From positions 16,919 to 80,918 of the forward strand of contig JADLDY010000039.1 in the NCBI GenBank assembly GCA_020846435.1: a stretch of 64,000 nucleotides of DNA, in the 5' to 3' direction. A program made the position numbers and the translations under genes. Shown in pieces: positions 42,215 to 43,556 of this stretch. Below the pieces are notes generated by a model. The model was not told where the DNA came from and searched no databases. It worked only from the letters and a program-made list of their open reading frames with translations. The number at the start of each line of letters is the position of its first letter. Position 1 is the stretch's first letter. This DNA is from Deltaproteobacteria bacterium (GTDB lineage Bacteria > Desulfobacterota > GWC2-55-46).

Positions 42215-43287
42215 TCCGTTATCTTGAAGGCGACTAAAAGAGCAAACGATATGACCGTACCTGCGATGTAGACAGGTATCGAATAGCGCAGCTCCCTTTT
42301 CACGCCGGAGATGCCGGTATAGACGGTAGAACCTGTAAACTGGAGCGCCACATAGGAGCTCGCGAGCGGAAAGAAGATGTACTTCGCCATATCGAGATAT
42401 ATGCTGGACGGCCCGTCAAGGAACAGGCCGGAGACGAATACAGTAACAAACCCGACCAGCCAGCCCTTCAGAGCGAATGACCTGAAAGGCACCCACGGCA
42501 GCAGGAGCGGCGTAAGGAAAGCGCCCGCTATTACCGACAGCGCGCCAAGAATCACCAGAGGGAAACCGTAGACCGCCGCCCCATTCCACGAGATGCCTGA
42601 GGGGGAGAGGCCGGCAGCAACGAGCGCAATCAACGCGAATATGACAAGACCCTTCATTGCCGGACGCAGTTCCATAGGCGTAAGGACGACCCTGTCGACA
42701 ATATCAAAGCCGACCTTTCTCATCGAGGGCGTTGCCTTATACCCGGCGCTGATAAAGCTCTTCAAGTCAGAGGCCTTGACCGGGCCGTATATCACGCGGA
42801 AACCTGTCTGCCTTTTGACCTCATGCGCCGCGACCCCCGGCCCTCCCAGCTGCGGGAGTATGAGACGCCTGTGAGAGACCATGCCAAACAGCTGCGTGGC
42901 AAAGATTCTTTTTACGAGCTCTTCGGTTCCGAAAGTACCCTTGCCAGCCGCGCACCAGACATTTATGCCCTTTGTGTCGAGGACGAGTATCCACGCGTCG
43001 AGGCCTGCAAGCGCGGCCCTGAGCTTGTTGAAGCTCAAGCCGTAATTGGCCGTCACAAAGACATCTGAATCCTTCCCCGGGTTGCCGAGGGCGTACAGGC
43101 CCGGCTTTACCAGATATTTTGTCCTGTATGAGCCGACCCTGCAACGCAGGTGCGCGAAGGTATCCTTCCAGGCAAGGACAGAGTCTGTCCTCAGCGGCCC
43201 GGCCTCAGCCTTTGGCGGGCAGCATTCGGTTTTCGCCTGAGAGCCTTCGCAGCAGCCGCCTGAGGCTTCTTTCGGTCTTGTCTTCAT
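42199..43287 (-). CDS. hgcA: Mercury-methylation corrinoid protein HgcA
   Basis: Diagnostic cap-helix motif GINVWCAAGKGTFG in a CFeSP-like cobalamin-binding domain followed by ~5 TM helices. Start at M28 of the ORF (MKTRPKEASGGCCEG…), overlapping the upstream gene stop (ATGA). Confidence 0.88.
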   Translation of the reverse strand: MKTRPKEASGGCCEGSQAKTECCPPKAEAGPLRTDSVLAWKDTFAHLRCRVGSYRTKYLVKPGLYALGNPGKDSDVFVTANYGLSFNKLRAALAGLDAWILVLDTKGINVWCAAGKGTFGTEELVKRIFATQLFGMVSHRRLILPQLGGPGVAAHEVKRQTGFRVIYGPVKASDLKSFISAGYKATPSMRKVGFDIVDRVVLTPMELRPAMKGLVIFALIALVAAGLSPSGISWNGAAVYGFPLVILGALSVIAGAFLTPLLLPWVPFRSFALKGWLVGFVTVFVSGLFLDGPSSIYLDMAKYIFFPLASSYVALQFTGSTVYTGISGVKRELRYSIPVYIAGTVISFALLVAFKITEWGLS

Positions 43288-43556
43288 AAAAGTTCCCTCA
43301 TCACCGGGCCGAGCCTGTCTTTCAAGAGAGAGACCATGTCCTCGACCTTCACCAGGGTTATGCAGCATACGACCCCGTCCTTTTCCCAGGTGGCCGCGAC
43401 CAGCTTGTCAGAGGGCTTTATCCCTGCCCTCTCGCGCAGCTCCTTCGGCAGAACCATCTGCCCCCTGTCGTCGACGCTCACTACGGCTTCCACCCTGCAG
43501 TTGTCAGCCTTGACTCCCGTGGGAGCGCAGCACGCTTCTTTTTTCTTCCTCGTCAT
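43284..43556 (-). CDS. AbrB/MazE/SpoVT-family swapped-hairpin DNA-binding protein with Cys-rich N-terminus (CC…C) and internal CC; putative regulator of hgcAB
   Basis: VDDRGQMVLPKELRERAGIKPSDKL matches the SpoVT_AbrB domain. Cys at 9, 10, 20, 64, 65. Stop overlaps hgcA ATG. Confidence 0.6.
   Translation of the reverse strand: MTRKKKEACCAPTGVKADNCRVEAVVSVDDRGQMVLPKELRERAGIKPSDKLVAATWEKDGVVCCITLVKVEDMVSLLKDRLGPVMRELL

Follow-up and report, generated by a model that had tools for sequence, protein, structure and literature searches.

What does a small cysteine-rich protein do when the stop codon of its gene overlaps the start codon of hgcA, the gene for the corrinoid protein of mercury methylation? 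The question is raised by a 90-amino acid (aa) open reading frame (ORF) located at positions 43284-43556, minus strand, of a 64,000-nucleotide stretch of contig JADLDY010000039.1 (hereafter the window), which derives from a Deltaproteobacteria metagenome-assembled genome (MAG). An initial annotation of the window had described the product as a candidate novel Hg-responsive regulator. The comparison across genomes presented here leads to a related but broader answer: with a probability of roughly 0.55, this member of the HgcC family would be an AbrB-fold autorepressor of the hgcC-hgcA-hgcB operon that acts on an array of TCWGA half-sites and is released by a thiophilic metal(loid), As(III) and/or Hg(II). 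The sequence comparisons make it highly probable that the protein is a DNA-binding autoregulator using the TCWGA operator, and for the proposal that its effector is a thiophilic metal(loid) we regard the balance as even.

The ORF is real, and its sequence, which starts with ATG, is identical to that of GenBank protein MCC6503099.1, labelled only as 'AbrB/MazE/SpoVT family DNA-binding domain-containing protein'. The AbrB/MazE domain that had been read from the translation was recovered by both PF04014 (E = 7.7e-7; 29.4 bits, cutoff 24.7) and TIGR01439 (31.2 bits, cutoff 28.3). A much stronger match was obtained with the NCBIfam model NF040962, 'HgcAB-associated protein HgcC' (108.4 bits, cutoff 70; E = 1.2e-31), in which aa 20-88 align with profile positions 2-70 of 70, and the adjacency to hgcAB to which this family owes its name is found in the window. 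The protein thus belongs to NF040962 and, more widely, to the AbrB superfamily. When a profile of 121 family sequences was compared with solved structures, only AbrB-type DNA-binding proteins (SpoVT, Sso7c4, AbrB) were matched. The AlphaFold2 (AF2) monomer consists of a core (approximately aa 20-70) with a predicted local distance difference test (pLDDT) score of about 90, a C-terminal helix (aa 71-89), and a Lys- and Cys-rich N-terminal tail (approximately aa 1-19) that is disordered (pLDDT below 50). The top Foldseek matches of this model were all of the AbrB type (SpoVT, AbrB, C68, Sso7c4, and DNA-bound MazE), with target-normalised template modelling scores of 0.6-0.75 but E values no better than 0.02. 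Residues D29, R31, G32, Q33, P37, K38, and R41, which form the DNA-recognition loop, are invariant in 120 close homologues and remain approximately 92-99% conserved across 150 representatives of clusters at 50% identity. The family is compact, with 360 clusters at E ≤ 1e-10 among 1.84 billion representatives.

The initial annotation had considered an AbrB-fold, thiol-rich protein in this position to be undescribed, and in this it was mistaken, since NCBIfam NF040962 already names the family HgcC and the gene was reported by Zhang et al. 2023 (PMC10349881). In their data, approximately 39% of hgcAB contigs and 8 of 31 confirmed methylators had a 'TA-associated prlF/mazE/abrB' gene immediately before hgcA. 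They put this 'antitoxin-like' gene forward as a putative, mainly archaeal, regulator, and made no mention of its cysteines; their Methanocella paludicola sequence clearly belongs to the HgcC family. The gene of the window and the one catalogued there share the family, the site directly upstream of hgcA, and the regulator idea. Therefore, the window gene is an ordinary representative of a family that was already catalogued, and for which a role in hgcAB regulation had been proposed in print. What appears to be new, as far as the searchable literature shows, is a linkage to the arsenic methyltransferase gene arsM, a conserved thiol set, and a sharply defined operator, which together point to a metal(loid) sensor of the AbrB fold. 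Neither NF040962 nor the accessible parts of Zhang et al. 2023 record the arsM linkage, the cysteine conservation, or the operator, and our searches of the searchable literature found nothing on an arsM link or an operator for the HgcC family.

The linkage to arsM emerged from the analysis of genomic neighbours. At one genome per species, a relative of the window protein was detected in at least 569 genomes, both bacterial (Deltaproteobacteria, Nitrospirota, Dehalococcoidia, Actinobacteria, Aminicenantia, and others) and archaeal (Methanomicrobia, Methanoperedens, Thermoplasmata, and Bathyarchaeia). Among the 80 loci most similar to the window protein, the family gene was directly followed by hgcA and hgcB in 31 and by arsM in 47, and the contig ended in the remaining two; thus, it preceded a metal(loid)-methylation gene in 78 of 78 informative loci, with a median gap of about 12 nucleotides (nt) in both classes. 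The identity of ArsM was confirmed by the NF008823 model (355 bits, cutoff 263) and by the presence of the GLGCGNP, ISNCVINL, and YIGC cysteine motifs. The excess of arsM-linked loci was observed although the sample had been ranked by similarity to an hgcA-linked query. Moreover, when NF040962 was tested on loci L006, L013, L017, L061, and L072, the arsM-linked proteins scored 120-133 bits, in comparison with 108 for the window protein, so that the name HgcC is too narrow. Genome annotation will consequently call arsM-linked regulators HgcAB-associated where no hgcAB is seen within 4 kb. A Pfam census was taken of sampled genes flanking the 47 arsM-linked pairs, one on the upstream side and two past arsM, and revealed housekeeping genes of unrelated kinds together with three ArsC-type phosphatases and two Acr3 proteins. 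Neither an ArsR-type helix-turn-helix (HTH) nor a toxin family was among the 25 commonest Pfam families in these neighbours, which indicates that the regulator-arsM pair is a self-contained module. The initial annotation had named widespread occurrence away from hgcAB, for instance beside a toxin gene, as the finding that would speak against it: 47 of the 78 loci do carry arsM, and the partner was never a toxin gene.

In a neighbour-joining tree, hgcA-linked and arsM-linked proteins were mostly but incompletely separated, the nearest neighbour having the same partner in 72 of 79 cases, and several apparent partner switches were observed. The tree comprises about 80 proteins and about 70 aligned residues and is weakly resolved, and it supports only that the partner is mostly, not strictly, clade-specific. 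A survey of hgcA synteny, suggested with the initial annotation, showed the family gene upstream in 15 of 68 metagenomic hgcA loci with room for it, in line with Zhang et al. 2023. Two further loci are worth describing. In the metagenome contig L141 (125-2119), arsM lies directly upstream of hgcA, which is another physical link between arsM and hgcAB; no regulator gene is visible there, and the contig starts 124 nt before arsM. In L014 (4159-5591), a 1.4-kb gap between the regulator gene and hgcA holds a gene for an ECF (extracytoplasmic function)-sigma-like protein and one for a small AhpD/CMD-like protein with a CxxC motif and a C-terminal GCGCG.

A second line of evidence came from the promoter region. 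The candidate operator that had been placed at 43572-43603 proved to be a real sequence element, and consists of three TCWGA-type half-sites, TCTGA (43596-43592), TCAGA (43587-43583), and ACTGA (43578-43574), with 9-bp spacing, so that the predicted operator, to which no strand is assigned, spans 43574-43596. The array is directly downstream of an extended -10 element, TGgTATAAT (43605-43597, minus strand, read by eye from the sequence), which it abuts. In its strict form, TCWGA-N4-TCWGA, the pattern has a single match in the whole 64-kb window, at 43583-43596. The half-sites were missed by the repeat finder because 5-bp arms are too short for it, and the hgcC promoter was not called in a consensus promoter scan because it has no good -35 element; homologous loci show TTGACA-N17-TATAAT where the window has the extended -10.

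The same element is found throughout the family. TCWGA repeats were present in the upstream 110 nt of nearly all family loci, with the strict pattern in 45 of 79 upstream regions and a loose form in 66 of 79, whereas the controls for the strict pattern gave 0.065 regions from shuffles and 4 of 3542 other 150-nt windows of the same loci. The distances between half-site centres were sharply phased: 147 pairs at 9 bp, 105 at 18 bp, and 47 at 27 bp, and no more than 6 pairs at every other distance. The 9-bp spacing occurred at 1.86 pairs per region vs 0.026 in controls. Chains of three to four half-sites are typical in bacteria and archaea, and in hgcA-linked and arsM-linked loci alike. In bacterial loci the array abuts or embeds the -10 hexamer, as in TCAGTATAATCAGAATATTCTGA downstream of TTGACA, and in archaeal loci it flanks the TATA box on both sides. 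The array recurred in independent metagenome loci, where 10 of the 15 with the gene had the strict form and 14 the loose form; by contrast, the TCWGA motif was found upstream of hgcA in none of the 53 loci devoid of the family gene. Since the proteins are only 50-65% identical and the promoter types differ, the conservation of the operator points to function and not to recent shared ancestry, and the strict co-occurrence of the array with the gene argues that the encoded protein is its binder. The proposal of autoregulation is thereby strengthened: the gene is the first of a tightly coupled operon, and the repeat upstream of it is a family-wide cis-element that co-occurs with it.

Locus L022, from a Syntrophales MAG (JALNVY010000023.1), holds both targets in one genome. 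An intact regulator gene precedes hgcAB, and a second, clearly paralogous promoter is located approximately 1.7 kb further on, ahead of arsM (L022:7395-8120). This second promoter has the same -35 element, the same TATATTCTGAT...CTGATA...AATCWGAATA array, and the same ribosome-binding site as the hgcC promoter, and is followed by a 10-codon remnant of the regulator gene, comprising its first nine codons and ending in a stop ('MVKEDQKKEE*'), and then by arsM. One regulator gene would thus serve two operator-bearing promoters, those of hgcAB and arsM, which is the arrangement that a trans-acting repressor would produce, and L022 would put mercury and arsenic methylation under one signal.

We then consider the residues that could sense such a signal. 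The vicinal and single cysteines noticed in the translation (C9, C10, C20, C64, and C65) are present, and they are conserved far beyond chance in homologues. In an alignment of the query and its 120 closest cluster representatives (n = 121), Cys was found at position 9 in 111 sequences, at position 10 in 88, at position 20 in 119, at position 64 in 121, and at position 65 in 120; in some homologues the vicinal pair is shifted from positions 9-10 to 19-20. Conservation holds for both partners: C20 is present in 31 of 32 hgcA-linked and 47 of 47 arsM-linked proteins, C64 in 32 of 32 and 43 of 47, and C65 in 32 of 32 and 47 of 47, respectively. At least three cysteines before strand 1 were counted in 20 of 32 hgcA-linked and 45 of 47 arsM-linked members. 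Similar tails occur in the partners. The N-terminal extension of HgcA (43150-43287) has two vicinal Cys pairs (GGCCEG...TECCPP), the C-terminus of HgcB (41906-41960) ends in CGC...SGCC, and the ArsM proteins adjoining family members begin with a similar SCC(G/A/T)P motif, so that all partners of the regulator carry CC tails like its own.

From these elements we propose the following mechanism. An HgcC dimer or tetramer would bind the three TCWGA half-sites, spaced exactly 9 bp apart, and, since the array abuts the -10 element, bound HgcC would block RNA polymerase. Repression, rather than activation, is suggested by the position of the array over the -10 element or the TATA box. The thiol set would comprise the strand-4 pair C64-C65, C20 immediately ahead of strand 1, and, in most cases, a CC pair of the flexible Lys-rich tail. 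Binding of a thiophilic metal(loid) to C20, C64, and C65, whether or not the tail CC takes part, would release the repressor. DNA binding, the sign of regulation, and the identity of the ligand are all proposed on comparative grounds. The ligand is suggested by the regulation of the two targets. For arsM, control normally lies with an As(III)-sensing ArsR. For hgcAB, there is an experimentally supported precedent in Pseudodesulfovibrio mercurii ND132, where the gene upstream encodes an unrelated ArsR-type repressor (ArsR2) with a response to arsenic (bioRxiv 10.1101/2022.10.17.512643). As(III) and Hg(II) may both act. Given that the same regulator-operator cassette drives hgcAB or arsM, and both in at least one genome, HgcC would be a counterpart, with another fold, of the Cys-site ArsR repressors.

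Several observations weigh against this autorepressor model. The 80 genome loci were selected by similarity to the window protein and are not a random sample of the 569 or more genomes. In the wider family (representatives at 50% identity) the cysteines are less universal, with C20 in 106 of 143, C64 in 117 of 148, and C65 in 132 of 148 sequences, and the tail CC is missing from many hgcA-linked Nitrospirota members. The Methanocella paludicola SANAE member, located upstream of hgcA, has Tyr at the C20 position. Arginines R8, R15, and R24, which are among the DNA contacts of Bacillus subtilis AbrB, are not kept in the HgcC family according to an alignment made by eye. The AF2 model is a monomer, and it places C20, C64, and C65 within one chain of what would be an obligate dimer. 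Finally, no DNA-binding or metal-binding study on any HgcC-family member was found in the searchable literature. As to the M. paludicola protein, from a cultured and confirmed methylator, it keeps both the tail CC and the strand-4 CC (Zhang et al. 2023, supplement file 12), and is a useful natural variant with regard to which thiols matter.

One rival of the metal(loid)-released autorepressor is a sensor specific for mercury, as the initial annotation had it, in which the vicinal thiols bind Hg(II) and hgcAB is induced by mercury only. The CC pairs and the three-Cys set could provide Hg(II) sites of the MerR kind, with two or three ligands, and the hgcAB operon begins with the family gene in 31 of the 80 genome loci and 15 of the 68 metagenome hgcA loci. 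However, arsM partners (47) outnumber hgcAB partners (31) despite the hgcA-biased sample, it is the arsM-linked proteins that reach the higher 'HgcC' scores, their genes have the same operator, the tree contains several partner switches, and in L022 both targets would depend on one regulator. With 47 of the 78 loci carrying arsM, mercury specificity is weakened and unlikely: a generic thiophilic signal fits better, and As(III) is at least as likely a ligand as Hg(II).

The cysteines could serve delivery instead of sensing. HgcC would then be a metallochaperone or delivery subunit similar to ArsD, whose Cys tail hands As(III) or Hg(II) to ArsM or HgcAB, with DNA binding secondary or absent. ArsD uses a CC-x4-C site. 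The tail motif of HgcC, (S/A)CC(A/G)P, resembles the SCC(G/A/T)P N-terminus of the adjacent ArsM as well as the CC pairs in the N-terminal tail of HgcA and the C-terminal tail of HgcB from the window, and the tight or overlapping gene spacing suggests stoichiometric co-production. What makes a chaperone improbable as the sole function is that it leaves unexplained a strictly co-occurring DNA motif overlapping the promoter, along with an invariant AbrB recognition loop, and that the arsM gene of L022 kept the operator while losing the coding part of the regulator. The chaperone and regulator roles are not mutually exclusive.

The same residues might also respond to O2 or redox state, as a thiol-disulfide switch or an Fe-S sensor limiting expression to suitable redox conditions. 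A content of about five cysteines per monomer in anaerobe lineages is in keeping with this, as is the O2-sensitive nature of HgcAB, a corrinoid and Fe-S system, and cyanobacterial AbrB-like regulators are thiol-modified. Nevertheless, the commonest target, arsM, encodes an S-adenosylmethionine-dependent enzyme with no special redox requirement, whose canonical regulators sense As(III), and a vicinal Cys pair plus a single Cys is the known three-sulfur pattern for As(III) and not one of Fe-S ligation. We consider redox sensing quite unlikely for these reasons. A lower probability still is given to an autoregulator that needs no ligand or answers to another signal, such as S-adenosylhomocysteine (SAH) or the methylated products methylarsenite, MAs(III), and methylmercury, MeHg, with cysteines of structural value. 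Both targets are methyltransferase systems, the ArsR2 of ND132 also responded to SAH (bioRxiv 10.1101/2022.10.17.512643), and the cysteines are not universal in the wider family; on the other hand, the protein has no recognisable small-molecule-binding domain, consisting of the AbrB core and one helix only, and a purely structural role is unlikely for two adjacent cysteines in a beta-strand and for a CC pair in a disordered tail. The reading as a type II antitoxin (PrlF or MazE), given by automated annotation and by Zhang et al. 2023 and backed by the Pfam MazE_antitoxin match and the JGI label 'antitoxin PrlF' on some members, is effectively refuted, as the neighbours in the window are a TPR gene and hgcA, the downstream partner in the 78 informative loci is always hgcA or arsM and never a toxin gene, and the antitoxin models score far too low (PF15937 PrlF, 13.2 vs 32; NF007429, 15.5 vs 125; NF050106, 13 vs 65); the protein is not an antitoxin.

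Comparison with characterised systems helps to define the proposed repressor. ArsR/SmtB proteins are, like HgcC, small proteins encoded by the first gene of the operon that they control, with targets that include arsM and hgcAB. The three-Cys site of such proteins often includes a vicinal pair from a flexible terminus, and the candidate thiols of HgcC include the tail CC. The classes of ArsR are defined by the location of the As-binding cysteines (PMC9213503). The folds, however, are unrelated, a winged HTH in ArsR/SmtB and an AbrB swapped hairpin in HgcC, and the single imperfect palindrome of the ArsR operator differs from the 9-bp-phased TCWGA array predicted for HgcC. Consistently, scans of the window protein against Pfam and NCBIfam gave no match to the ArsR/SmtB winged HTH (PF01022/HTH_5) or to any ArsR-family model at E ≤ 1. 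MerR sensors combine a MerR HTH with a coiled-coil Cys triad, whereas HgcC gave no MerR-family match in the Pfam or NCBIfam scans and has an AbrB-like fold.

With AbrB, SpoVT, and Sso7c4, HgcC shares the fold and the looped-hinge DNA-recognition motif VD.RGq.v.PkelR. Unlike HgcC, the characterised members of this group are not known to have a conserved Cys set or a link to metals; SpoVT senses through a separate GAF domain, and AbrB binds loosely defined AT-rich DNA and not a sharply phased array. Another member of the superfamily, MraZ, the repressor of the dcw cluster, gave a weak NCBIfam match with the window protein (NF001476, E = 3e-4). MraZ is encoded by the first gene of its operon and is an autorepressor acting on short direct repeats of fixed spacing over the promoter, as proposed for HgcC, but it consists of two AbrB-like domains in fusion, assembles into a ring, and binds another repeat, and neither cysteines nor an effector are known for it. 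ArsD resembles HgcC in its vicinal-Cys-plus-one As(III) site (C12-C13-C18) and in being a small protein co-encoded with its client, and differs from it in having a thioredoxin-like fold, in serving the ArsA ATPase, and in the lack of a promoter-associated operator array.

The layout of the operon in the window is in keeping with a first-gene regulator. A Shine-Dalgarno sequence, GGAG (43564-43567, minus strand), is found 7 nt before the hgcC ATG, and the overlap of the hgcC stop (TGA, 43286-43284) with the hgcA start (ATG, 43287-43285) as ATGA was as initially described. The hgcA gene (42199-43287, minus strand; 362 aa) is genuine, with 395 bits on NF040863 (cutoff 275) and an NVWCAAGKGTF motif in its translation; the product, including the start codon used here, is identical to GenBank protein MCC6503098.1 from the same MAG, where this clear HgcA is labelled 'acetyl-CoA synthase subunit gamma'. 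The hgcB gene (41906-42202, minus strand; 98 aa), encoding a 2x[4Fe-4S] ferredoxin with a C-terminal CGC...GCC, is likewise genuine (NF040864, 121 bits, cutoff 99). The mechanically called ORF for hgcB (41906-42214) starts at a GTG at 42214, and the alignment with the HgcB model begins at residue 6; the start is most likely the ATG at 42202, which overlaps the hgcA stop as ATGA, and both junctions of the hgcC-hgcA-hgcB operon would then be 4-nt overlaps. A strong intrinsic terminator past hgcB, with a 14-bp stem followed by a T-run (41862-41893, minus strand), marks the end of the operon, and a terminator-like hairpin (43772-43786, minus strand) lies between the upstream TPR gene, which it follows, and the hgcC promoter. 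These two structures delimit hgcC-hgcA-hgcB as a compact, translationally coupled three-gene operon.

An inverted repeat with 14-nt arms of 86% complementarity, followed on the minus strand by TTTTT, is located just upstream of the hgcC promoter (43624-43655) and may be a second terminator or an insulator against read-through from the TPR gene. When the whole window was scanned with Rfam for a riboswitch or leader RNA that could control the operon instead, no family scored at its threshold. In the surroundings, alaS (39109-41841 region) is convergent with hgcB, and genes for a TPR protein, a BamD/YfiO-like TPR lipoprotein, two CheW proteins, and CheA lie upstream of the operon on the same strand (43806-48393). 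The part of the window examined for context, 40-47 kb, showed neither ars genes nor toxin genes.

The control of hgcAB expression and the native purpose of hgcAB are open questions of mercury biogeochemistry. The abundance of hgcAB transcripts predicts methylmercury production poorly and, to our knowledge, the only hgcAB regulator tested is the ArsR2 of strain ND132. The HgcC family precedes approximately one-fifth to one-third of hgcAB loci (15 of 68 here; 26-39% in Zhang et al. 2023), and the cross-genome comparison provides for it a model that can be tested at the bench, with an operator, the candidate sensor residues C20, C64, and C65 plus the tail CC, and a predicted derepression by As(III) and/or Hg(II). 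The use of one cassette for arsM and hgcAB is a second, independent link between mercury methylation and arsenic, carried by a fold unrelated to ArsR. Tentatively, and with somewhat less confidence than in the repressor model itself, the HgcC family could be an unrecognised structural class of metal(loid)-sensing repressor common to Bacteria and Archaea, combining the AbrB fold with a Cys-thiolate site and the 9-bp-phased TCWGA operator, that places hgcAB and arsM under one signal. If this is confirmed, the few known families of metalloregulators would gain a new fold, and the TCWGA motif could be used to predict co-regulated genes in uncultured methylators. If true, it would also lend independent genomic support to the view that the native role of hgcAB lies in arsenic or soft-metal(loid) stress and not in mercury itself.

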